This document shows, in pieces, positions 4,759 to 58,801 of a stretch of 64,000 nucleotides of DNA. Made by a program: the position numbers and the translations under genes. The DNA lies in NCBI GenBank assembly GCA_964438255.1, contig CAYTKA010000010.1, forward strand, positions 787-64,786, read 5' to 3'. The notes beneath the pieces were generated by a model. The model worked only from the letters and a program-made list of their open reading frames with translations. It was not told the origin of the DNA and ran no database searches. How positions within the stretch are numbered: the first letter of the stretch is position 1; each line of letters opens with the position of its first letter. The stretch comes from an uncultured Gemmatimonadaceae bacterium (lineage in GTDB: Bacteria > Gemmatimonadota > Gemmatimonadetes > Gemmatimonadales > Gemmatimonadaceae).

Positions 4759-7700
4759 CGCAGCGCGCTCGCCGCCGGCTCCCGGCCGGCGCGCAGTGAG
4801 AAGCGATCGGCGCCCGAGAGCGGGAACCGATACTCGAGCTTTCCCTCGATCGTGTTCGAGAGGCCGCGCAGCCCCTGCGACTCGGCACCGGTGCCGTTGC
4901 TTCCACCCAGCAACGGCTGGAGCGCACAGAGCCCCGTGCTGAAGCTCAGGAAGAGTCGATCACTGATCTGCTTCTCACCGCCGACGCGCGTCGTGTACAG
5001 AAAGCCGAACTGATTGTTCGTTCCGGGCTGGTTGACCGTGTTGTCGTACGCCGCCCCCGATTGAATCTGGAACAGATCCATGAAGCCGAGCTGGTCGCGC
5101 AGCGACTTGCTGAGCGTCGCCGTCGCCGTGGGCAGCAGGAACTCGATCACGCGCTGTGTCTGCGACGGGCCACCCACGCCACCGCCGCCCGTGAGGCCGG
5201 CGAGCTCTTCGCTCTTGCGGCCGGTCACGAGATAGCTCACGAGATCCGACGGGGAGATCGACGCATCGGTGCTGGACAGCGCGAGTGACGGCTGCGGGAA
5301 GAAGTTTCCGGAGATGTGCGCCAGCACGCCGATGTCGGCGCGGTTCGTCTGCTTGACCTGGTAGAGCGCTTTGACGTCGATCTCGGGGTTGAAGTCCGGC
5401 GTCCCGAAGAAGGTGATGCGCCCGCTCTGCACCTGGAACTCGCGTCGCACCACGTCGAGATCGAGGGTGTACGTGCCGCGGTCGGCGCTCAGCGTACCGC
5501 TCAACGCGAGTGTGTACTTCGGTGCGATGCGCGTCGTATCGGCGAAGGGATCGAAGGTCGAGATGCGCGTGTCCCGCTCGTCACGCGCTCGTGTCACGTT
5601 GAGCGAACCGCCCAGCTTGATGTTCGCTTCCTTCGACCGCAGCCACACGTCGTCGCCGACGTTGACGGAGACACCGGCAAGGCGTAGATGCTCCACGAGC
5701 TTGCTCTGCGTCGCCGGCATCAACGGCTTGATGCGCACGTCGGTCGTGTCGAACTGCATCGCGAAGTCGTCGAGCGTCAACTCGACGAGCTCCTTCTTGA
5801 TCAGCTCGGGGATGAAGATCGTGCCCCGATCCACGTTCAGCGCGCCGCTGAGCGTCGCGTCGTCGGGCGTGCCGTTCAGCGTGATTCCCGAGCGCCCCGT
5901 GGAGACGTCGAGTCGCGCCAGCGAACGCCTGTCGACGACGCGCAGTGCATGCGCGTCGAGCCGCAGGGCGAACCGCGGATTGTAGAGATCACGGAACACC
6001 ATCGCTCCGCCAAGCGACGCGGTACCTCCACTCGCCGGACTCGTCCACCGCAGATGATCGATCGCGAGTGAATCGCGGTCCGCGTTCACCCGCATCGCGC
6101 CATCGATCGCCGTGAACCGGAGGCCCGCGGTCGGCACGTCGAACGCACCGTCATGCACGCTCGCGACCCCGCCGACGTGCGGCCGGCCCGGATCGCCGCT
6201 GAGGGCGAGATCGAGCACGAGCCGACCGCTGACGTTCTGCAGCTTGTCCGACACCGCCTGCACGAGCGCGAGATCCACGCTGTCGCCGCGAATGCGGCCG
6301 CGCAGGGCGTCGCCCGTCGCGCGCACCGCGAAGAGCGTCAGCGCGATCGGATAGTCCACGTCGACGTCGAGGATCGAGCGGCCGCCGCGCAGGAGCTGCG
6401 CCTGCAATCGCGCACGCTCCTGACCGTAGCCGCCGTTCACGGTGAACGCCTCGAGCGGGATCGCGCCCACCTTGAGCGTCCGTGCCCCCGCGCTCCACGT
6501 CATCACCGGCCGGTCGCGCGTGCCGGTGATGTCGACGTCCGCATTCATCCGCCCCTCGAACGACGGCGGGAGCTGCGCGAGTCGTCCAAGATCGGCGAGC
6601 GGGACGCCGCTCGCCTCGAAGTGTCCCCGCGCCGGTGCGCCGACACCGGAGCCGCGCACGAACCCGCTGATGCGCGCGCCCGTCGCGTCCGCGAAGGCGA
6701 GCGTATCGAGGGACAGCCGCGTCGGCGACGAGACGAGGTGCGTCGGCCGACGCAGCGCCCACCGTGCCGTACCGATCGACGCGTTGAGGGTGTCGAGCTG
6801 CAGGGTGGTCGTGTCCCCGAGCAGCGTGAGCTCACCTGCGGCGCGGACCCGGTCTCCATTGTCCGCCAGCGTGCCGATGCCGAAGCGCGTCCGACCACGG
6901 TCGAGCATCCGCGCGCTGGCCACCGCGCTTCGCATGTGCAGCCCCGCCGTGACGATCGTGTCCGCCCGCAGCTCCACGTTCGCCGTCGTGCGACCGTGCA
7001 CACTGCGCACGGCCAGCGTGCCCTTCATCGCGTTCGCATGCCCGGCACTCGCCTGCAATCCCTTTCCCTGCACCGCGCCGTGCAGATCCAGCGAATCGAG
7101 CCAACCGCGCAGCGCACCGCGGAACGCGAGCGTACCACGGAGCGTGTCCGCCCTGGTGCGTCCACTCGTTGCCGCCGTCGCCGTCTCGAGGTAGCGGCGC
7201 AGTCCGCCCAGCGAATCCACGTCCACGGCGAGTGAAAGCGAGTCGGCGCCCGCGGAACGCGTGAGGCCGAGCGTGCCGTGCGCGCGCAGCGTCCCCGGCA
7301 TTCCCTCGACGCGAAGCGTGTCCACGTGCAGCACGCCGAGATCGAAGCGGAGCCGCGACGTCGCCGACGCGACGCGCACGCTATCGATCTCCGAGCCGCT
7401 CAGGCGAAGCCCGACCGCGCCGGCGAGCGTGGCCAGCGAGTCGCCGACGAGATCCACGTCGTACGTACCGGCGAGTCTCGTCGCCGGCTTTGCCATGCCG
7501 AACAGCGCTGTGGCATTCAGCGCGTCGAACGATCCGCCACCGCGGGCGCCGTAGCCGCCAACCGAGTCGGCGTCGACGTGGCCCGAGTACACGATGTGCC
7601 CCGCCGCGCCGGTGAGATCGGCGTCGACGAGAAGATCGGGCGCCATCCCCTTCACTTTGATCGGACCGGAGAAGGTGCCGCGTAGGGGGAGCTTGGGATA

Positions 7701-50093: not shown

Positions 50094-50508
50094 GGGAGCC
50101 GGCGCCCGACGACGACGGGCTTCCCTTCGCGTCGGCGATCTGCCGCATCATGTACGCGATCCGCGCGGTGAGAATGCGCGTCGCACGGATGTCGTAATGT
50201 GACTTGACCCACAGCACAGCGAGATCTCCGATCGCCCACAGCAGCCCGGCAAAGATCAGGAGGCGCACCGCTTCCGCGAGCAGCACGCCGATCGACACCG
50301 GCACCGTGCCGGTGAAACCGAAGAAGAGCTGCGCCGCCATGAGCAGCAACAGGATGATCGCCATGCCGCGGAAGAGAATGGCGAGGGCGCGAATCCCCTT
50401 CACCGGCTCGATGTCGTCCTCGCGGACCTCGACGCCGGCGAGCAGGTGCCGCTCGCCGCTGACCCGGCGGTCGTCCGCGGTGATGGTGCTGCCTGAATCT
50501 CTATCCAT
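50074..50508 (-). CDS. Hypothetical membrane protein (3 TM)
   Basis: ATG 50508 gives MDRDSGSTITADD.... Hydrophobic core ALAILFRGMAIILLLLMAAQLFFGF. No family recognised. Confidence 0.4.
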   Translation of the reverse strand: MDRDSGSTITADDRRVSGERHLLAGVEVREDDIEPVKGIRALAILFRGMAIILLLLMAAQLFFGFTGTVPVSIGVLLAEAVRLLIFAGLLWAIGDLAVLWVKSHYDIRATRILTARIAYMMRQIADAKGSPSSSGAGSHADRRP

Positions 50509-50591
50509 GGTCTGGTATACCGCGTGAGGATGGCGTGTGGTCCGACGACCACGCGATCGCCGAGGGTGCAAGGATCGCACCCCGGAACTGC

Positions 50592-50620
50592 TTGCTTCTG
50601 CCATGCGCGCCGGCTATCTA
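50592..50620 (+). promoter_or_regulatory. Sigma-70-like promoter candidate TTGCTT-N17-TATCTA
   Basis: TTGCTT 50592-50597, a 17-nt spacer, and TATCTA 50615-50620, upstream of the metH leader. Confidence 0.35.
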
Positions 50621-50657
50621 TAAAGGGTACCACAAAGCGCACCACACAACCGTCGTC

Positions 50658-50741
50658 GTGGCGATTTCCAGCAAATTGCGGCCACGTTAATCCTCTGCTA
50701 AAGCGCGAGCCCGCACGCCGATCGCGTTTGGGCCTTTTTTT
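50658..50741 (+). promoter_or_regulatory. Candidate riboswitch/attenuator leader (motif copy A) with intrinsic terminator, upstream of metH
   Basis: Hairpin CGUGGC...GCCACG with the loop starting GAUUU, conserved tail GUUAA...UGCUAA..GCGCGA, then GCCC(GC)...(GC)GuuuGGGC and a U7 run (50735-50741), 15 nt before the metH ATG. About 41/57 aligned positions are identical to the copy at 56665-56725. Confidence 0.55.
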
Positions 50742-50755
50742 CGTCCGGTACTTCG

Positions 50756-53700
50756 ATGTCCGATTCTCCTGCATTCTCCCCGCATCGCTCGTCCTCTCCC
50801 TACCTCCGTGCGCTGGACGAGCGCGTGCTCGTCTACGACGGGGCAATGGGGACGAACATTCAGCGGCACAATCCCACCGCCGAGGACTACGGGGGCAAGT
50901 CGCTCGAGGGGTGCAACGACAACCTCGTCCTCACGCGGCCGGACATCATCCAGTCCATCCACGAGTCCTTCCTCGCCGTGGGCTGCGACGTGGTGGAGAC
51001 CTGTACCTTCCAGAGCACGCCGCACCGTCTGCGCGAGTGGGGGATCGAGGACAAGGCTCGCGACCTCAACGTTCGAGCAGCGCAGCTCGCCCGCGCGGCG
51101 TGCGACAAATACGCCACCCCCGACCGCCCGCGCTTCGTCGCCGGCTCGATCGGCCCGACGGGAATGCTCCCGTCGAGCAGCGATCCCGCCCTGTCCAACA
51201 TCACCTTCGATGCGCTCGCCGAAACGTACTACCTCCAGGCCAAGTACCTGGCTGAGGGAGGAGTGGACGTGCTGCTCGTCGAGACGGCGCAGGACATCCT
51301 CGAGGTCAAGGCGGCGCTCACCGGCTTCGAGCGGCTGTTCGCCGAGCTGGGACGTCGCATCCCGGTGCAGGCGCAGGTCACGCTCGACGTGAGCGGCCGC
51401 ATGCTGCTCGGCACCGACATCGCCAGCGCGCTCACCACGCTCGAGGCGATGCGCGTGGACGTCGTGGGGCTCAACTGCTCCACCGGCCCCGAGCACATGC
51501 GCGAGCCCGTGCGCTTCCTCACCGAGCACGCGTCGCTCCCCATCTCGGTGATCCCGAACGCCGGCCTTCCCCTCAACACCGGCACGGGTGAGGCGATCTA
51601 TCCCCTCGAGCCGAAGCCGATGGCGGGGATGCTGCGTGACTTCGTCGAGGAGTTCGGCGTGCGCATCGTCGGCGGCTGCTGCGGCACGACGCCGGAGCAC
51701 CTGCGGGAGATCGTGTCCGCCGTGCGCACCGCCGATCCGGTGGAGCGGCCCGCACACGCGCGCGAGGCAACGGTGTCGTCGGCCATGCGCGCGACGTCGA
51801 TCCGGCAGGAGCCGGCGCCGCTCCTCGTCGGCGAGCGCGTGAACGCGCAGGGGTCGCGCAAGGTGAAGCGGCTGCTGCTCGCCGACGACTACGAGGGGAT
51901 CCTCGAGGTCGCGCGCGAGCAGCAGGAGTCGGGTGCGCACGTGCTCGACATCTGCGTCGCCGTCACCGAGCGCGCCGACGAAGCCGACCAGATGGCGAAG
52001 CTGGTCAAGCTGCTCTCGATGAGCGTCGAGACACCGCTCATGATCGACTCCACCGAGGCGCCGGTCATCGAGGCCGCGCTGGAGCACGTGCCGGGGCGCG
52101 CGATCATCAACTCCATCAACATGGAGAATGGCCGCAAGCGCATCGACTCCGTGGTGCCGATCGCCAAGAAGCACGGCGCCGCGCTCGTGGCGCTGACGAT
52201 CGATCCGATCGGCATGGCCAAGACACGCGAGCGCAAGCTCGAGGTGGCGAAGAAGATCTACGACATCGTCGTCGGCGAGTACGGCCTGAAGCCGGAAGAT
52301 CTCGTCTACGACGCGCTCACCTTCACCCTCGCCACGGGCGACGCGGAGTGGGTGGACAGCGCGCACGAGACGATCGAGGGGATCCGCCTGATCAAGCGCG
52401 AGCTGCCCGGTGTCTTCACCATCCTCGGGGTCTCCAACGTGAGCTTCGGGCTCGATCCCGACGCGCGGCACGTGCTCAACTCCGTCTTCCTGCATCACTG
52501 CGTGGCAGCGGGGCTCGACGCGGCCATCGTCAACCCGGCGCACATCAAGCCGTACGCCGAGATCAGCGCCGAAGAGCGTACGCTGGCGGACGATCTCGTG
52601 TTCAATCGTCGGCCGGATGCGCTCCAGCGGTTCATCGACGCCTTCGCCAGCAAGGGCGGGAGCAGCGCCGTCGAGGAGAAGGAAGATCCGACGGCCGGCA
52701 TGACACCGGAGCAGAAAGTCCACTGGATGGTCCTTCATCGCAAGAAGGAAGGGATCGAGGACGCGCTCGATACCGCCGGCGTGCAGGAGAATCCGGTGCG
52801 CGTGCTCAACGACGTACTGCTCCCCGCCATGAAGGAGGTCGGCGACAAGTTCGGCGCCGGTGAGCTCATCCTTCCCTTCGTGCTCCAGAGCGCCGAGGTG
52901 ATGAAGAAGGCGGTGAAGCACCTCGAGCAGTTCCTGGAGAAGGCGGAGGGCTACACGAAGGGCAAGGTCGTGCTGGCCACCGTGTATGGAGACGTGCACG
53001 ACATCGGCAAGTCGCTCGTCAACACGATCCTCAGCAACAACGGCTACACCGTGTTCGACCTCGGCAAGCAGGTGCCGGTGAACACGATCATCGAGAAGGC
53101 GCTCGAGGTGGAGGCCGACGCGATCGGACTGTCCGCGCTGCTCGTGAGCACGAGCAAGCAGATGCCGCTCTGCGTGCAGGAGCTCGACAAGCGCGGCATT
53201 CAGATCCCCGTGCTCATCGGCGGCGCGGCGATCAACCGCCGTTTCGGCCGGCGCGCGATGTTCGTCGACGGCGAGCGCCCGTACGACTCCGGCGTCTTCT
53301 ACTGCAAGGACGCGTTCGAGGGGCTGGAGACGATGGACTCGCTTCAGGACAGCCCCGAGCGGCGGCGGGACGCCATCGCGCGCCTCATCGACGAGGCGCG
53401 CAAGGACGTCTTCCTGCACGGCAACGTCGGCAAGGACGTGAAGGCGGGGATCGCCGGCGGCGAGCGGAGCGACGTGACGCACGATCACGCCATTCCGTCA
53501 GCGCCGTTCTTCGGCACGCGCGTGCTGAACGACATCCCGCTGAACGAGGTGTTCGACCTGCTCGACCTCGACGAGCTGTATCGCCTCCAGTGGGGCGGCC
53601 GCGGCTCGGGGCCGGAGTTCGAGCGCATGGTGCGCGAGGAATTCGAGCCCACGCTCGAGCGGCTGAAGAAGGAAGCGCTGGCCGAAGGGTGGGTGACGCC

Positions 53701-54283
53701 GCGTGCCGTGTACGGCTACTTCCCGGCGCAGAGCGTCGGCAACGAGCTGGTCGTCTACGACCCTGACGCGTACGCGAAGGACGGCTCGCTCGTGGAGAAG
53801 ACGCGCTTCCATTTCCCGAGACAGGAAGGGCGCGAGCGGCTGTGCATCGCCGATTACTTCCGCTCGTCCACCAGCGGCGACGTCGACGTCGTCGGCTTCC
53901 AGATCGTGACGGTGGGCGACGAGGCGACGCGTCGCTTCGAGGCGTTGCAGGCGGCGGGCGAGTACACGGAGGCGTTCTACTCCCATGGCCTTGCTGTCGA
54001 GACGGCGGAGGCGGTCGCCGAGTGGCTGCACCGCCACGCACGTCGCGAGCTCGGGATTCCCGGCGGGCGCGGCAAGCGCTACTCGTGGGGGTACGGCGCC
54101 TGCCCCGACCTCGAGGACCACGCGCAGCTCTTCACGCTGCTCCCCGCCGAGGCGGCGCTGGGCATGGAGCTGACGTCGGCGTTCCAGCTCATTCCGGAGC
54201 AGAGCACGGCGGCGATCATCGTGCATCACCCGCAGGCCAAGTATTACGCGGTTCGTACGGGCGGGGAGGCAGTGCTGTCGTGA
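50756..54283 (+). CDS. metH: Cobalamin-dependent methionine synthase
   Basis: 1175 aa. Hcy-binding domain (VYDGAMGTNIQ, GGCCGTTPEH), pterin-binding domain, B12 domain (GDVHDIGK) and AdoMet-activation domain (RYSWGYGACPDL). Confidence 0.95.
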   Translation: MSDSPAFSPHRSSSPYLRALDERVLVYDGAMGTNIQRHNPTAEDYGGKSLEGCNDNLVLTRPDIIQSIHESFLAVGCDVVETCTFQSTPHRLREWGIEDKARDLNVRAAQLARAACDKYATPDRPRFVAGSIGPTGMLPSSSDPALSNITFDALAETYYLQAKYLAEGGVDVLLVETAQDILEVKAALTGFERLFAELGRRIPVQAQVTLDVSGRMLLGTDIASALTTLEAMRVDVVGLNCSTGPEHMREPVRFLTEHASLPISVIPNAGLPLNTGTGEAIYPLEPKPMAGMLRDFVEEFGVRIVGGCCGTTPEHLREIVSAVRTADPVERPAHAREATVSSAMRATSIRQEPAPLLVGERVNAQGSRKVKRLLLADDYEGILEVAREQQESGAHVLDICVAVTERADEADQMAKLVKLLSMSVETPLMIDSTEAPVIEAALEHVPGRAIINSINMENGRKRIDSVVPIAKKHGAALVALTIDPIGMAKTRERKLEVAKKIYDIVVGEYGLKPEDLVYDALTFTLATGDAEWVDSAHETIEGIRLIKRELPGVFTILGVSNVSFGLDPDARHVLNSVFLHHCVAAGLDAAIVNPAHIKPYAEISAEERTLADDLVFNRRPDALQRFIDAFASKGGSSAVEEKEDPTAGMTPEQKVHWMVLHRKKEGIEDALDTAGVQENPVRVLNDVLLPAMKEVGDKFGAGELILPFVLQSAEVMKKAVKHLEQFLEKAEGYTKGKVVLATVYGDVHDIGKSLVNTILSNNGYTVFDLGKQVPVNTIIEKALEVEADAIGLSALLVSTSKQMPLCVQELDKRGIQIPVLIGGAAINRRFGRRAMFVDGERPYDSGVFYCKDAFEGLETMDSLQDSPERRRDAIARLIDEARKDVFLHGNVGKDVKAGIAGGERSDVTHDHAIPSAPFFGTRVLNDIPLNEVFDLLDLDELYRLQWGGRGSGPEFERMVREEFEPTLERLKKEALAEGWVTPRAVYGYFPAQSVGNELVVYDPDAYAKDGSLVEKTRFHFPRQEGRERLCIADYFRSSTSGDVDVVGFQIVTVGDEATRRFEALQAAGEYTEAFYSHGLAVETAEAVAEWLHRHARRELGIPGGRGKRYSWGYGACPDLEDHAQLFTLLPAEAALGMELTSAFQLIPEQSTAAIIVHHPQAKYYAVRTGGEAVLS

Positions 54284-54338
54284 ACGACAAACGCGAGTAT
54301 CTCGCAGGCGGTACTTCCGTACCTCGAACGCGCGTGGA

Positions 54339-54549
54339 GGCCGTAACAATGCACCGACGCATCACGCACGCCGATGGTACTGCGGTACTCGGGTACTGCG
54401 TACTTCGTACGGCGACTCGGCGCAGCTATTCTCTCGACGCGCGCGGCGCCAAATGCGGCATGAGACCGCCGGCTCTATCGGGAGGCGTGCAAGCCCGGTG
54501 TGGTTTTCCGCCGGTCACCGCACCGGAGCATCGGTGCATTGTTACGGCC
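54339..54549. repeat. Perfect 19-bp inverted repeat (core of a longer imperfect palindrome) in the metH / yitJ-like intergenic region
   Basis: GGCCGTAACAATGCACCGA (54339-54357) and TCGGTGCATTGTTACGGCC (54531-54549), 173 nt apart. Flanking segments cgtgga/tccacg, cctcga/tcgagg and ggta/tacc extend the pairing to about 54310-54585. Confidence 0.9.
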
Positions 54550-54649
54550 AGTCTGTGAGTTCCACGTACTCGAGGACTGCCTACCAATTGCTCGCCGTTC
54601 ACTCCCCGCCAGTCCAGGTATCTGGCACCGCAAGGATGCGGAGCATTCA

Positions 54650-56575
54650 ATGAGTACAGCAACACTGCATCGCCTGACCGACCCCGACTCGCTCGTCCTG
54701 TTCGACGGTGCGATGGGAACGATGCTGTACGCGAAGGGCATCTTCATCAATCAGTGCTACGACGAGCTGAATCTCCGCTCCCCCGATCTCGTGCGCGACG
54801 TGCATCGCCAGTACGTGGCGGCGGGCGCGGAGGTGCTGGAGACGAACAGCTTCGGGGCGAATCGGCTCAAGCTCGCGCCCTTCGGGCTCGCCGCGCAGAC
54901 GCGCGAGATCAATCGCCGCGCCGCGGAGCTGGCGCGCGAGGCAGCCGACGAGGGGCACGACGTGCTCGTCGCCGGGGCCGTCGGACCGCTCGGCGTGCGA
55001 CTCGAGCCCTATGGCCCCACGTCGGCGGCGGAGGCGCGCGAGATCTTCCGCGAGCAGATCGAAGGGCTCCGGGAAGGGGGCGCGGATCTGTTCATCCTCG
55101 AGACCTTCGGTGACCTGCACGAGATCGGGCAGGCGATCGTTGCGGCGCGCGAGGTGGATGCGTCGATTCCCGTCGTGGCGCAGATGACGATCGGCGCGGA
55201 CGGGCTCACACCATACGGTGCGACGCCGGAAGACGTGGCGCGCGCACTCGACCGCTTCGGCGCCGACGTCATCGGTCTCAACTGCTCCGTCGGCCCGCAG
55301 GCGATCCTCGACGCGATCGAGAAGATGGCCCCGGTGACGAAGAAGAAGCTCTCGGCGCAGCCGAATGCCGGCATGCCGCGCGACGTGAGTGGTCGCCGCA
55401 TGTACATGGCGAGCCCCGAGTACATGGCGACGTACGCGCGGCACCTCGTGCAGGCGGGCGCGAAGATCGTGGGTGGCTGCTGCGGCACGACGCCGGAGCA
55501 CATTCACGCCATGGTCGAAGGGGTGCGCCCGCTCAGCCCACGCTTCGCGCGCGTCGGCGGTGCGGCGCACGCCGGCGCGACGGCACCGCCGCGCGACACC
55601 AGGCGCGTGCCGGACGTGGAGGCGGTGCCGCTCGCCCAGCGCTCGCGCTGGGGTGCAAAGATCGCCGCCGGAGCGTTCGTCACGAGCGTGGAGATCGTGC
55701 CGCCGCGCGGGGTGGACGCGACGCGCATGCTCGCCGACGTCGGACAGCTCAAGCGCGCCGGCGTGGACGCCGTGAACGTCCCCGACGGCCCGCGCGCGCA
55801 GAGCCGCATGGGCGCCCTGCTCACGTCGCTGCTGGTCGAGCAGCGCGTCGGCATCGAGACGGTGACGCACTACGCGTGTCGCGACCGCAACCTGCTCGGC
55901 ATGCTGAGCGACCTGCTGGGCGCATCGGCCGTCGGCCTGCGCAACCTGCTGCTCATCACCGGCGACCCCCCGAAGATGGGGCCGTACCCGAGTGCCACGG
56001 CGGTGTTCGACATCGACGCGATCGGGCTCACGAACCTCGTACGCAACCTCAATCACGGCCGCGACCCCGGCGACAACGCCATCGGCGCGCCGACGCAGTT
56101 CGTGATCGGCGTCGGGGTGAACCCCGCCCCGATCGATCTGGAGCACGAGCTGAAGCGGTTCGCGTGGAAGGTCGAAGCCGGTGCGGAGTTCGCCGTCACG
56201 CAGCCCGTGTTCGACGCGGCGCAGCTCGAGAACTTCCTGCGTCGCACGGAGGGCAATCGCATCCCGATCGTCGCCGGCATCTGGCCGCTCGTCAGCGTGC
56301 GCAACGCCGAGTTCCTCGCCAATGAGGTGCCGGGCGTGAGCGTGCCCGAGGGCGTGATCACGCGCATGCGAAAGGCGGGCGAGCGCTCGAAGGAACATGC
56401 GGTGGCCGAGGGGATCGCCATCGCGCGCGAGATGCTCGAGCGCGTGCGCGCGAGCGTGCAGGGCGTGCAGGTGTCGGCGCCCTTCGGCAAAGTCGAGCTG
56501 GCGCTCGAGGTGTTCGGCGACACCGTCGCCCCCGATCCGATCGCTGCCAGCGCGTCCGCGCCTGCTCCCGCGTGA
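54650..56575 (+). CDS. Bifunctional homocysteine S-methyltransferase / 5,10-methylenetetrahydrofolate reductase (YitJ-like)
   Basis: ATG 54650 after GGAG. N-terminal LFDGAMGTMLY...GGCCGTTPEHI (Hcy-binding domain) and a C-terminal MTHFR domain (VTSVEIVPPRG...LLLITGDPP). Confidence 0.9.
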   Translation: MSTATLHRLTDPDSLVLFDGAMGTMLYAKGIFINQCYDELNLRSPDLVRDVHRQYVAAGAEVLETNSFGANRLKLAPFGLAAQTREINRRAAELAREAADEGHDVLVAGAVGPLGVRLEPYGPTSAAEAREIFREQIEGLREGGADLFILETFGDLHEIGQAIVAAREVDASIPVVAQMTIGADGLTPYGATPEDVARALDRFGADVIGLNCSVGPQAILDAIEKMAPVTKKKLSAQPNAGMPRDVSGRRMYMASPEYMATYARHLVQAGAKIVGGCCGTTPEHIHAMVEGVRPLSPRFARVGGAAHAGATAPPRDTRRVPDVEAVPLAQRSRWGAKIAAGAFVTSVEIVPPRGVDATRMLADVGQLKRAGVDAVNVPDGPRAQSRMGALLTSLLVEQRVGIETVTHYACRDRNLLGMLSDLLGASAVGLRNLLLITGDPPKMGPYPSATAVFDIDAIGLTNLVRNLNHGRDPGDNAIGAPTQFVIGVGVNPAPIDLEHELKRFAWKVEAGAEFAVTQPVFDAAQLENFLRRTEGNRIPIVAGIWPLVSVRNAEFLANEVPGVSVPEGVITRMRKAGERSKEHAVAEGIAIAREMLERVRASVQGVQVSAPFGKVELALEVFGDTVAPDPIAASASAPAPA

Positions 56576-56618
56576 GCGCGCGCCGGAGTTTGTACGCCGA
56601 CGCGACGAAAGGTCGCGC

Positions 56619-56647
56619 TTGACGGCTCGCCGGGAACGCCATAGACT
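56619..56647 (+). promoter_or_regulatory. Sigma-70-like promoter candidate TTGACG-N17-TAGACT
   Basis: TTGACG 56619-56624, a 17-nt spacer, and TAGACT 56642-56647, about 20 nt before leader motif copy B. Confidence 0.4.
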
Positions 56648-56667
56648 CGCTTGCAGAACCGAACGCC

Positions 56668-56757
56668 GTGGTGATTTGCCGCCGTTGCCGCCACGTTAAA
56701 CAAGATGCTAACACGCGACTCGCCCGGCGGCGCTCCCGACCGGGCGTTCTTCGTTTC
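56668..56757 (+). promoter_or_regulatory. Candidate riboswitch/attenuator leader (motif copy B) with intrinsic terminator, heading the sulfur-assimilation operon
   Basis: Hairpin CGUGGU...GCCACG with the loop starting GAUUU, tail GUUAA...UGCUAA..CGCGA, then terminator CGCCCGG (56721-56727) / CCGGGCG (56740-56746) plus UUCUUCGUUUC. Confidence 0.55.
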
Positions 56758-56874
56758 ACCACGCGCCACCGTTCCATCACGCCAGTGTCCACCATCGCTC
56801 CGACCACCGCCGCCGTCCTCGCCACGATCGCCCTCGCGATCGTGCGGAATGGTGCGTGTGCGTGTCGTGACGGG

Positions 56875-56946
56875 ATGTGTGCGTGCGCCTGTATCGGCGC
56901 GCACGCGACGACACGACGACGGTCGGGGAGGGGACGGCGCGGCTGA
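56875..56946 (+). CDS. Candidate Cys-rich leader peptide (MCACACIGAHATTRRRSGRGRRG; the frame is open upstream to GTG 56785, adding ...NGACACRDG)
   Basis: Frame read directly: ggt gcg tgt gcg tgt cgt gac ggg atg tgt gcg tgc gcc tgt. That is 5 Cys in 12 codons, 4 of them TGT. Only a weak SD. Lies between two terminators upstream of Cys/sulfur genes. Confidence 0.3.
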   Translation: MCACACIGAHATTRRRSGRGRRG

Positions 56947-56986
56947 CACCGCACGAGTTCCACCACCGAAGGGAAGAAGCTCACCC

Positions 56987-57013
56987 GGCCGCTCGTTCGA
57001 GCGGCCTTTTTTT
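56987..57013 (+). terminator. Strong intrinsic terminator 38 nt upstream of the rhodanese start
   Basis: GGCCGCTCG (56987-56995), a short loop, CGAGCGGCC (56998-57006) and T7 (57007-57013). Confidence 0.8.
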
Positions 57014-57051
57014 GTCCCATCACGCGGCCCACCACCGCAGGAGAGCCGAAC

Positions 57052-57939
57052 ATGCCTACCATCGCAGTCGACCCGACGCCCGCCGCGATCGCCGACAAGG
57101 GCTACGTCCACCCCGACGCCCTCGTCTCGACATCGTGGCTCGCGGAGCACCTCGACGATCCGTCCGTGCGGATTCTCGAGAGCGACGAGGACGTGCTCCT
57201 CTACGACCTCGGCCACATCCCGAACAGCCAGAAGATCGACTGGCATGAGGACCTCAACGACCCCGTGCAGCGCGACTACGTGAGCCGCAAAGCGTTCGAG
57301 GCGCTCGTGCGCCGGCTCGGCATCGACGAGTCCACCACCGTCGTGTTCTACGGCGACAAGAACAACTGGTGGGCGACGTACGCCTTCTGGGTCTTCCGCC
57401 TCTTCCACTTCCCGAACGCGCGGATCCTCGACGGCGGGCGGACGAAGTGGGAGGAGGAGGGGCGCCCCTTCGTCACCGAGACGCCGACCTTCCGCGCCAC
57501 GACCTACCGCGCCCCCGAGCGCGACGACCGCGTCATCCGCGCCTTCCGCGACGAGGTGCTCGCGCACAGCGCGGCGCGCCGCCCGCTGATCGATGTGCGG
57601 TCACCCGACGAGTACACCGGCAAGAAGACGCACATGCCGGAGTATCCGCAGGAGGGCGTGCTGCGCGGCGGCCACATCCCCGGCGCGAAGAGCGTCCCAT
57701 GGGCGCGCGCCGCAAATCCCGACGGGACGTTCAAGAGCGCACCCGAGCTCCGCGCCATCTACGAGAGCGAGGCCGGCCTCCGTACCGGCGACGACGTCGT
57801 GGCGTACTGCCGCATCGGCGAGCGCTCGTCGCACACCTGGTTCGTGCTCACGTATCTCCTCGGCTACGAGAAGGTGCGCAACTACGACGGGAGCTGGACG
57901 GAGTGGGGCAACGCGGTGCGCCTCCCGATCGAGAAGTGA
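57052..57939 (+). CDS. Thiosulfate/3-mercaptopyruvate sulfurtransferase (tandem rhodanese, SseA/CysA2-like)
   Basis: 295 aa with active-site loop [12 protein letters not shown] and AGGAGA as SD. Confidence 0.9.
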
Positions 57940-57961
57940 CGACGCGCCGGGTGATCGCCGC

Positions 57962-58801
57962 ATGAGCCGCCGCGCCGTGGTGAGCGTCCCGGCCTCCTGG
58001 GTGAGCCGGGGGTGGGGGACGGCGCTCGGGGTGACCCTCGAGCGCTGGCTGACCGCGTCGTTCACGCTGACCGGGGGCACCTTCGCGCCGGTGGTCGAGG
58101 GCGCGGGGACGCTGCGCGACCGGCCTGCGCCGCCGGAGGGGGACCCTCTGCTCCGCGGCTTCCACGCGGCGTGCACGCACGGGCGCCGTCCGCTGCCGCG
58201 CGGACTCCTCGTGCGCGCGAGCTCGCACATTCCGCTGCGGCGAGGGCTGGGCGCATCCGCGGCGGCGGTCGTGGCGGGCGTGGTGGCGGCGAACGCGCTG
58301 TACGGGCTCGCCCTCGGCGACCACGACGTCGCCGGCGTGGCGGCGCGCGTACTTCGCGGGCCGGCACAGGGGACGCACACGGCGCTCGCCACATGGGGAG
58401 GCACCGTGGTGGCGCACGCCCACGCGAGCGATCCGCTCCACGTCACGCCGATCGACGTGCATCCGGCGCTGGCGCTCGTCATCGCCGTCCCCGAATGCGT
58501 CGCGGCATGGACGTCGGCGAACGTCCGCACAGAGGACGCCGTGCGTCGCGTGATGCGCGCGGCGCTCGCCGCGGGCGCGGTAGGCGCCGTGCCGGGCCGC
58601 GACGGCGCGACGATCGTCGCCATCGGCGCGCACGACGTCGTCGAGACGGTCCGCGCGGCGATGGTGGCCGCGTGGCGTGACGCCGGCGTCGCGGCCGAGG
58701 TGTCGCTCAACCCGTCGCGCGTGGCCGGCCACCGCGCGCGAGTGCAGCACGTCTGCGACGATCACTCCGCCGCGCCAGCCGCAGCGCACCCGGTCTCCTG
58801 A
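57962..58801 (+). CDS. Divergent GHMP-kinase family protein (homoserine-kinase-like)
   Basis: ATG 57962. VSVPASWVSRGWGTALG resembles the ThrB N-terminus. GHMP motif II is IPLRRGLGASAAAVVAG. Motif III is degenerate (VPGRDGATIVAIG). Confidence 0.5.
   Translation: MSRRAVVSVPASWVSRGWGTALGVTLERWLTASFTLTGGTFAPVVEGAGTLRDRPAPPEGDPLLRGFHAACTHGRRPLPRGLLVRASSHIPLRRGLGASAAAVVAGVVAANALYGLALGDHDVAGVAARVLRGPAQGTHTALATWGGTVVAHAHASDPLHVTPIDVHPALALVIAVPECVAAWTSANVRTEDAVRRVMRAALAAGAVGAVPGRDGATIVAIGAHDVVETVRAAMVAAWRDAGVAAEVSLNPSRVAGHRARVQHVCDDHSAAPAAAHPVS

Follow-up and report, generated by a model that had tools for sequence, protein, structure and literature searches.

The SAM-II class of S-adenosylmethionine (SAM) riboswitches (Rfam RF00521), the metA element known from Agrobacterium tumefaciens metA, from Sinorhizobium meliloti metZ and from the Sargasso Sea metX RNA of crystal structure 2QWY, is the closest described system to the leader element considered here. 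That element lies in 64,000 nucleotides (nt) of DNA from an uncultured Gemmatimonadaceae bacterium (GenBank assembly GCA_964438255.1, contig CAYTKA010000010.1; this whole stretch is called the window below). A first-pass annotation, made from the sequence alone, had flagged two copies of a structured leader motif; copy A lies in front of metH and copy B in front of a sulfur-assimilation operon. I find that copy B is very probably a SAM-II riboswitch of a divergent Gemmatimonadaceae subtype, acting as a transcriptional OFF switch. With less assurance, I lean towards reading its whole ~400-nt leader as a natural two-input gate in which SAM-II and its terminator stand in series with a leader-peptide attenuator, an arrangement that recurs in the Gemmatimonadaceae.

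SAM-II was originally found in the alpha-proteobacteria, a few other proteobacteria and Bacteroides, usually with a promoter a few nucleotides 5' of helix P1 and often with a terminator on the 3' side, and the elements were interpreted as OFF switches (Corbino 2005, PMC1273637). In the crystal structure, nucleotides U10-U12 of loop L1 lie in the major groove of helix P2b, and U20, U21, G22 and C23 pair with a GC-U-AA box; within this helix U20 pairs with A46 and U21 with A45, SAM is stacked between U21 and G22 and touches the unpaired U44, and the helix is continued by A19.A47 and U18-A48 (PMC3303485). The related SAM-V class has the same architecture of pseudoknot and triplex binding site (PMC6061858). 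SAM-V has been described as a translational switch. Neither copy in the window matched SAM-V (RF01826) in Rfam searches up to an E-value of 10.

Leaders in which two sensors are combined offer the second comparison. Tandem gates are said to have been described by Sudarsan in 2006 for Bacillus clausii metE, where SAM-I is joined to an adenosylcobalamin (AdoCbl) riboswitch, and by Poiata in 2009 for SAM-II and SAM-V in 'Candidatus Pelagibacter'. Such gates resemble the window leader in that two independent sensors stand in series, with a separate terminator for each, and one signal or the other is enough to shut the operon. They differ in that the second sensor in the window would be no aptamer but a translated open reading frame (ORF) that reads the charging of tRNA-Cys (tRNA-Met at the metX genes of relatives). 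In the Salmonella mgtA leader, sensing of Mg2+ or ATP is combined with proline-codon leader ORFs. The mgtA and mgtCBR leaders likewise join direct RNA sensing to a small ORF that stalls ribosomes (PMC3641672). Their ligands and folds are different and the ORF is embedded in the sensor, whereas the window has separate, sequential modules, each with an intrinsic terminator.

Sequences compared

Copy B was compared with copy A and with six further Gemmatimonadaceae copies (L092, L081, L177, L324, L325 and L326). As outgroup I used representatives on IMG/VR contigs, namely L259 and L282, which are typical SAM-II elements (75-81 bits), and L244, which is below the Rfam threshold. These three are what was kept from pattern scans of viral contigs that gave 120 full-motif matches, mostly chance. 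A hairpin-only pattern matched 28 times on viral contigs, and since only three of these matches carry GCUAA at the correct distance, the hairpin alone is not diagnostic. Neither regular expressions nor nhmmer found SAM-II near rhodanese genes in 80 genome and 80 metagenome loci from rhodanese-protein scans; the informative closer relatives came from exact-protein look-ups.

A probable SAM-II riboswitch in front of the sulfur operon

The Rfam scan of the window returned a single match above the gathering score, RF00521 SAM_alpha (SAM-II), at 56658-56728 on the forward strand (the strand of all features below). Its score of 38.8 bits exceeds the gathering score of 36, with an E-value of 3.3e-5 for the 64-kb window, and the motif is therefore beyond chance. 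No other Rfam family matched copy A or copy B at permissive thresholds. Orthologous or paralogous copies at seven Gemmatimonadaceae loci all lie above the threshold, at 36.5-41.2 bits, and the aptamer hardly changes even as identity of the neighbouring MetX protein drops to 67%.

The layout of copy B is that of a SAM-II leader of a methionine, SAM or sulfur gene, with a promoter just 5' and an intrinsic terminator 3'. A scan for sigma-70-like sites found TTGACG, a 17-nt spacer and TAGACT at 56619-56647, the sole such site in 50300-57300, with a predicted start ~10-15 nt 5' of P1; relatives have TTGAC-type boxes at the equivalent position. P1, as read from the sequence, is a 6-bp hairpin of CGUGGU (56667-56672) with GCCACG (56690-56695). 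Its 17-nt loop begins with L1, GAUUU (56673-77), continues as the 5' strand of P2 (56678-89, with UUGC at 56685-88) and ends in UUGCC. An A-rich L3 (56696-56706) leads to GCUAA (56707-56711), the canonical 3' strand of P2b and partner of the loop UUGC, and then to a CGCGAC box (56714-56719). Terminator 1, a stem and U-rich tract, occupies 56721-56757, and GGCGGC, the proposed antiterminator or anti-aptamer strand, lies within it at 56726-56731.

Much of this had been read correctly in the first-pass annotation. The Rfam match bears out its suggestion of a pseudoknot with the H-type topology of small SAM aptamers, and the closing helices are present as it gave them in both copies (CGUGGC/GCCACG at 50657-50662/50681-50686 in copy A), even if its start for copy B, 56668, falls one base inside P1. 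The loops of both copies do start with GAUUU and end with UUGC, followed by one further nucleotide. The difference between the two stems, C-G to U-G, is a one-sided change to a wobble and not the compensatory change that had been proposed.

When the Gemmatimonadaceae copies are overlaid on the numbering of the crystal structure, GAUUU corresponds to 8-12, (U)AUUGC to 18-23 and GCUAAAA to 42-48, an exact match. The signature nucleotides fall one-to-one on the crystal contacts (U10-12, U18-A48, A19.A47, U20-A46, U21-A45, U44 and G22), and U56709 is the counterpart of the unpaired U44 that touches SAM. The GCUAA box stands 11-12 nt past P1 in every copy (12 nt in copy B). Only in copy B are positions 19 and 47 occupied by G56684 and C56712, which can form a G-C pair; A.A is found there in the remaining copies and in the crystal RNA. 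The covariance model and these signature nucleotides establish membership of the class; that the RNA binds SAM, and that binding alters expression, I infer from the sequence.

The element nevertheless departs from typical members of its class. Typical SAM-II elements have alpha-proteobacterial or Bacteroides hosts, whereas this one belongs to the Gemmatimonadaceae; it has a loop of 17-18 nt and a probable P2a of only 3-4 bp made through a CGCGA box, and it scores 36-41 bits rather than 75-81. It thus represents a divergent and barely detectable subgroup, outside the range given in the founding paper.

Terminator 1 and its control

Terminator 1 is as it had been described, with CGCCCGG (56721-27), a 12-nt loop, CCGGGCG (56740-46) and UUCUUCGUUUC (56747-57). 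The hairpin is stable and can be lengthened by three inner pairs to 10 bp, leaving a single bulge and a loop of 5 nt (-19.1 kcal/mol, z = -2.74). Over seven loci, the pair that flanks GCCCGG/CCGGGC is C-G, C-G, G-U, A-U, A-U, A-U and U-A, which is direct covariation for the hairpin.

The GGCGGC segment, which overlaps the 5' arm of terminator 1, has two complements in the aptamer, both of them GCCGCC repeats; the first lies in the loop (56678-83) and the second spans P2b and the 3' arm of P1 (56687-92). This suggests how the switch might work. Transcription would begin just past the TTGACG/TAGACT promoter, and P1 would form (56667-72 with 56690-95). With SAM bound, pairing of the loop UUGC with GC-U-AA (56707-11) would give the canonical H-type pseudoknot. 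A triplex pocket around SAM would be built from the unpaired U together with the GAUUU strand, and a short P2a would probably form between the loop GCCGCC and CGCGAC. This fold would sequester both GCCGCC repeats and leave GGCGGC and CGCCCGG free, so that terminator 1 (56721-57) forms and transcription stops. Without SAM, GGCGGC would pair with a GCCGCC repeat and pre-empt terminator 1, and the polymerase would read through.

Folding models are in part consistent with this scheme. In folds truncated 5' of the terminator 3' arm, pairing of GGCGGC with the aptamer is 3-5 kcal/mol better than the P1-enforced fold in all four B-type sequences, and in folds of five sequences terminator 1 forms in every one when the aptamer is constrained closed. 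The full-length minimum free energy (MFE) fold of copy B is the antiterminated one. Both the GGCGGC and the GCCGCC sides are invariant in seven copies, and because of this the antiterminator step, and the OFF logic under SAM that follows from it, is something I infer from the models. At both terminators of the leader, only truncated, co-transcriptional-style folds agree with switching, and the full-length models are mixed.

The alternative that survives best, although I consider it improbable, is a genuine SAM-II aptamer without SAM-dependent intrinsic termination. Terminator 1 might then be constitutive and yield a small RNA (sRNA) that contains the riboswitch, as with RZ/RA1 of S. meliloti, or SAM might exert its control by way of Rho, of the stability of the RNA or of translation of the small ORF further 3'. 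The SAM-II leaders of S. meliloti indeed give terminated sRNAs whose terminator is not predicted to respond to SAM (PMC9373788). In L092 and L081, moreover, the unconstrained full-length MFE fold already holds P1 and the terminator together, which also tells against the OFF switch since antitermination is not thermodynamically obvious there, and the antiterminator has no covariation in its support. Against this stand the overlap of GGCGGC with the terminator arm and its complementarity, shared by every B-type copy, to two segments of the aptamer, a context of biosynthetic genes that suits feedback repression, and the reading of terminators after many SAM-II elements as OFF switches (Corbino 2005, PMC1273637).

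In all eight Gemmatimonadaceae SAM-II terminators (56747-56757 and 50737-50748 in the window, and those of L092, L081, L177 and L324-L326), UUCG occurs within or just 3' of the U-tract. This UUCG could base-pair with a conserved (G)CGA(A), part of the CGCGA box that lies 5' of the terminator hairpin.

The partner of the loop UUGC

The first-pass annotation had paired the loop UUGC with GCGA in the 3' tail (GUUGC with GCGAC in copy B, UUGCG with CGCGA in copy A). GCGA is indeed present in both tails (56715-56718 in copy B, 50705-50708 in copy A), 19-20 nt past the helix rather than the ~25 nt stated, and the complementarity is real. However, because the copies match the crystal contacts, the partner of UUGC is GCUAA (56707-11) and not GCGA.

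It is very unlikely that the fold with UUGC paired to GCGA ~20 nt past P1, leaving another role to GCUAA, is the functional one. Its 4-bp core (one G-U) is possible in 8/8 Gemmatimonadaceae copies with an invariant box, and copy A offers CGCGA no better complement. Yet UUGC cannot have two partners, and the crystal structure gives it GC-U-AA (PMC3303485). In the covariance check that had been proposed, Rfam places copy B in SAM-II, and the aligned homologues do not back the UUGC/GCGA helix, which is 62% paired over 10 distinct sequences (alignment A2); pairing reaches 85% in the canonical P2b/P2a helix (between columns 18-26 and 45-54). The core pairs of the UUGC/GCGA helix are broken in outgroup sequences, and the two extension pairs that had been cited as evidence occur in one sequence each. 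Furthermore, GCGA is found in 8/8 Gemmatimonadaceae copies and in 0/3 SAM-II representatives outside the lineage (L259, L282 and L244); the search pattern required GCTAA, so that GCUAA is present in the outgroup by construction, a constraint that did not apply to the absence of GCGA. Under the UUGC/GCGA fold the tail of L282 has a G.A mismatch, where P2a gives a compensated U-A pair.

Under the canonical SAM-II fold, P1 is 98% paired over the same 10 sequences, and L244 contributes two double-sided changes. All four pairs of the P2b core are possible in 10/10, at the level of sequence only, as the positions are invariant; for the same reason covariation cannot decide between the pseudoknot models within the lineage. 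The CGCGAC box is most likely a lineage-specific 3' strand of P2a, to judge from its sequence and from its place at the P2a position of the Rfam consensus. In copy B the proposed pairs are G56715-C56682, C56716-G56681, G56717-C56680 and C56719-G56678 (C17-G50, G16-C51, C15-G52 and G13-C54), which are in register with P2b and form a short helix with mismatches that depends on the alignment. In alignment A2, columns 19-53 are paired in 10/10 sequences and columns 18-54 in 9/10, with one U-A replacing G-C in L282; this varying tail position changes in step with a position in the middle of the loop, which is what P2a predicts, rather than with the G of UUGC. Pair 12-57 joins the nucleotide after GAUUU to the last of the box; it is G-C in the B-type elements and is reversed to C-G in copy A. 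These two double-sided changes, in L282 and in copy A, support the P2a register. The earlier reading is thus partly supported, having found a genuine conserved box and the right topology and assigned the box to the wrong loop nucleotides.

Several further observations weigh against a SAM-II OFF switch in this lineage and must be set beside the evidence above. Copy B is only 2.8 bits over the Rfam threshold, where typical SAM-II elements reach 75-81 bits, and copy A is below the gathering score of 36. The MFE of the whole element is no better than that of shuffled sequences (z = -0.7), and terminator 1 has an interrupted U-tract. The proposed P2a has only 3-4 pairs and includes mismatches, and the CGCGA box could alternatively pair with the conserved UUCG of the U-tract. 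P2b, GCGA and GCCGCC/GGCGGC never vary within the lineage and so give no covariation proof.

A SAM-II-like fold with a changed ligand, such as S-adenosylhomocysteine (SAH) or another sulfur metabolite, would fit the near-threshold scores, the shortened loop and P2a and the lineage-specific CGCGA box, but it is the least credible of the alternatives, as every pocket nucleotide known from the structure is kept (U10-12, U20, U21, G22, U44, A45 and A46) and the controlled genes (metH, metX-metY and sulfur assimilation) form a classical SAM regulon.

A candidate cysteine attenuator as second checkpoint

From the U-tract of terminator 1 to the first gene, a rhodanese with its ATG at 57052, there are 294 nt, in agreement with the ~300 nt of further leader noted earlier. 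The accompanying proposal that copy B is only the first of two checkpoints also holds up, since a cysteine-codon leader ORF and a second terminator are found 3' of terminator 1. No Rfam family matches 56760-57050 at E-values up to 10.

The leader ORF has 53 codons, from GTG at 56785 to TGA (56785-56946), and the peptide VSTIAPTTAAVLATIALAIVRNGACACRDGMCACACIGAHATTRRRSGRGRRG. It starts ~130 nt into the transcript and has five Cys codons within 12 codons in its middle (56857-56892), a clustering matched by 1/1000 dinucleotide shuffles, and by 0-7/1000 in L091, L093, L174 and L098. Homologous Cys-rich ORFs occupy the same place 5' of rhodanese in L081, L091, L093, L174, L177 and L098. The peptides are conserved at APTTAA and at M-T/S-S/T N-termini, and an in-frame indel of a Cys codon separates L093 from L174, suggesting that the ORF is translated.

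Terminator 2 (56987-57013, or 56984-57013 with the preceding CCC) reads (CCC)GGCCGCUC, loop GUUC, GAGCGGCC and U7. The terminator scan gives it eight pairs, seven of them G-C, and it is the strongest of the region (-17.6 kcal/mol, z = -5.5). It ends 38 nt 5' of the rhodanese ATG and is conserved in L081, L091, L092, L093, L174 and L177. Its 5' arm has a potential alternative partner in the 3' part of the ORF, the proposed antiterminator box 2 (GACGGUCGGG, 56918-56927), in which CGGUCGGG at 56920-27 pairs with CCCGGCCG of the arm (56984-56991), one G-U included. Six relatives have a GCGGCCGG(G/A) box at a constant distance of 49-54 nt from the terminator, and in L081, L091, L093, L174 and L177 it lies inside the ORF and complements the 5' arm perfectly. 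In L098 the sequence of the terminator is another one, and its partner box has changed to match. Folds truncated ahead of the 3' arm show the 5' arm (region 3) paired to box 2 at 7/8 loci.

Given the position of box 2 within the ORF, a ribosome passing through this box would block antitermination, and one stalled at the Cys codons would permit it. Transcripts that read through terminator 1 would thus reach an independent checkpoint at which stalling frees box 2 for antitermination and passage through box 2 lets terminator 2 form, the logic of classical attenuation. Both checkpoints would have to be passed, and the rhodanese and sulfate-assimilation operon would be expressed only if SAM and charged tRNA-Cys were both low. 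I regard 56785-57013 as a candidate classical cysteine leader-peptide attenuator, its ORF, box 2 and terminator being conserved in relatives.

On the other side of the balance, no Shine-Dalgarno sequence is visible 5' of the leader ORF, which starts with GTG. L092, the sole ortholog found that shares SAM-II, keeps only two Cys codons. The full-length MFE fold does not switch cleanly, and masking by a stalled ribosome leaves terminator 2 unflipped.

The comparison with the trp, his and leu attenuators is close. Like them, the second checkpoint has a cluster of regulatory codons, an ORF region complementary to the 5' arm of the terminator, with which it can form the alternative pairing, and a GC-rich hairpin with a U-tract before the first gene. 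It differs in its regulatory amino acid, cysteine (methionine in sister loci), and in sitting behind a riboswitch terminator. Cys-codon leader ORFs have been reported in actinobacteria, one of them 5' of an operon with the sulfurtransferase gene cysA2, and these are translational and have no terminators (bioRxiv 10.1101/834739; PMC1262725). The mycobacterial polycysteine small ORFs (Ms5788A, cysA2 operon; Canestrari 2020) and the actinobacterial cys leaders (Seliverstov 2005) share with the window a Cys-rich upstream ORF, a thiosulfate sulfurtransferase and pausing for tRNA-Cys. However, the mycobacterial ORFs are leaderless and end in a Cys run that pairs with the Shine-Dalgarno sequence further 3'; they act on translation, through the unmasking of that sequence, and no terminator is involved. 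By contrast, the window ORF is internal to the leader, has its Cys codons mid-ORF and is followed by an antiterminator and a terminator. The window ORF thus falls outside the mycobacterial polycysteine class, although it would respond to the same signal.

Two other candidates in this leader were set aside. The leader ORF does not appear to encode a membrane peptide, as its hydrophobic N-terminus in the window is not conserved in relatives. An AUG at 56705, which overlaps GCUAA, was rejected as the start of a regulated ORF; its frame is not that of the Cys ORF in the window, and metX-type copies have no start codon there.

Two-sensor leaders in relatives

Unlike typical SAM-II elements, the window element has a second, putatively ribosome-dependent attenuator on its 3' side. 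In L081, L091, L093, L174 and L177, which have no SAM-II 5' of rhodanese, the attenuator module stands directly behind the promoter, with the same terminator and an ORF of 40-54 codons containing 3-7 Cys. The riboswitch-terminator cassette of the window thus lies between promoter and Cys attenuator just where relatives lack it, which fits a modular evolution of leaders.

The corresponding gene cluster of L081 and L177 includes a second leader, 5' of metX-metY, in the order promoter, SAM-II with its terminator, a Met-rich small ORF (MISMRRMHMRMSM...) and a second terminator. Three further MetX loci (82%, 72% and 67% protein identity) share the tandem arrangement, all with aptamers above the Rfam threshold. 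The five leaders are at L081:4383-4690, L177:~6503-6830, L324:1181-1500, L325:1190-1500 and L326:1190-1500, and their small ORFs (MISMRRMQMRMSMAAAS...) contain 6-7 Met. SAM-II is thus followed by a Met-codon leader (MISMRRMQMRMSM...) in 5/5 metX-metY loci examined, and by a Cys-codon leader in the window and L092. Because the five metX loci and the window share the arrangement, SAM-II with a leader ORF rich in a single amino acid is conserved in the family. To judge from sequence, the Met-rich ORF and second terminator are possibly an attenuator that works through methionine codons, placed in tandem with the riboswitch.

Taken alone, the flagged element is of a known class with ordinary SAM feedback, and what is new is the lineage and the unusual two-sensor leader. 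SAM-II followed by Cys- or Met-codon leaders suggests a natural two-signal logic of SAM and aminoacyl-tRNA, and if this is true, leader-peptide attenuation with classical terminators would extend to cysteine and methionine. A literature search found no description of a methionine-codon attenuator or of SAM-II with leader peptides, which is not proof of novelty. No description of a classical terminator-type cysteine attenuator was found in the literature searched, and a search for SAM-II or riboswitches with Gemmatimonadetes or Gemmatimonadota returned nothing relevant.

Copy A and gene context

Copy A, a SAM-II-like aptamer with a terminator (50648-50748), lies immediately 5' of metH (50756-54283). 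Its Rfam SAM_alpha match (50648-50720) reaches 23.3 bits with an E-value of 0.53, and standard threshold-based annotation would therefore miss it. It has the same P1, GAUUU, UUGC, GCUAA and CGCGA boxes (50657-50709), that is, every SAM-II signature nucleotide. Its terminator (-13.9 kcal/mol, followed by U7) is single, with no second checkpoint. metH is followed by a metF-like gene for a bifunctional homocysteine methyltransferase/MTHFR, and copy B is placed between these two genes and the sulfur-assimilation operon.

The first gene of that operon (57052-57939; Pfam, NCBIfam) encodes a two-domain rhodanese resembling thiosulfate/3-mercaptopyruvate sulfurtransferases, and its homologues of 73-83% identity are named sulfurtransferase and come from metagenome-assembled genomes (MAGs) of Gemmatimonadaceae and Gemmatimonadota. 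A GHMP-family kinase-like gene follows (~57962-58801), and then genes for a TauE-like protein and sulfate adenylyltransferase, as identified by Pfam, NCBIfam and tblastn to the L092 operon.

Cys-run short ORFs also occur 80-250 nt 5' of rhodanese in L012, L040, L044 (Chloroflexota MAGs), L079 (a Cellvibrionaceae MAG) and L126, with peptides in other phyla such as MMTMPLYPPAVCCPTCCCT..., ...MQCCCTEADC and ...MICYCCCKN. These sequences suggest that Cys-leader control of rhodanese is widespread across phyla, with an enrichment that is modest, as the forward search gave 17 loci against five in the reverse control and eight of the 17 are near-identical (L081-L088).

Both operons with an added SAM-II (57052-58801 in the window and L092:2501-5912) have the GHMP-family gene, which is homoserine-kinase-like, after rhodanese, and the L092 operon has ThiS- and ThiF-like genes as well. 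Relatives without SAM-II have cysK, or OsmC and sulfite reductase, in place of the GHMP gene. One might speculate that the GHMP, ThiS and ThiF content reflects a sulfur-carrier or phosphohomoserine route to homocysteine.

Finally, one IMG/VR contig, L298, has at ~1190-1220 a hairpin identical to the P1 and loop of L259, with the UUAAAC...GCUAAA tail swapped for unrelated sequence, and this may be a rearrangement or integration junction.

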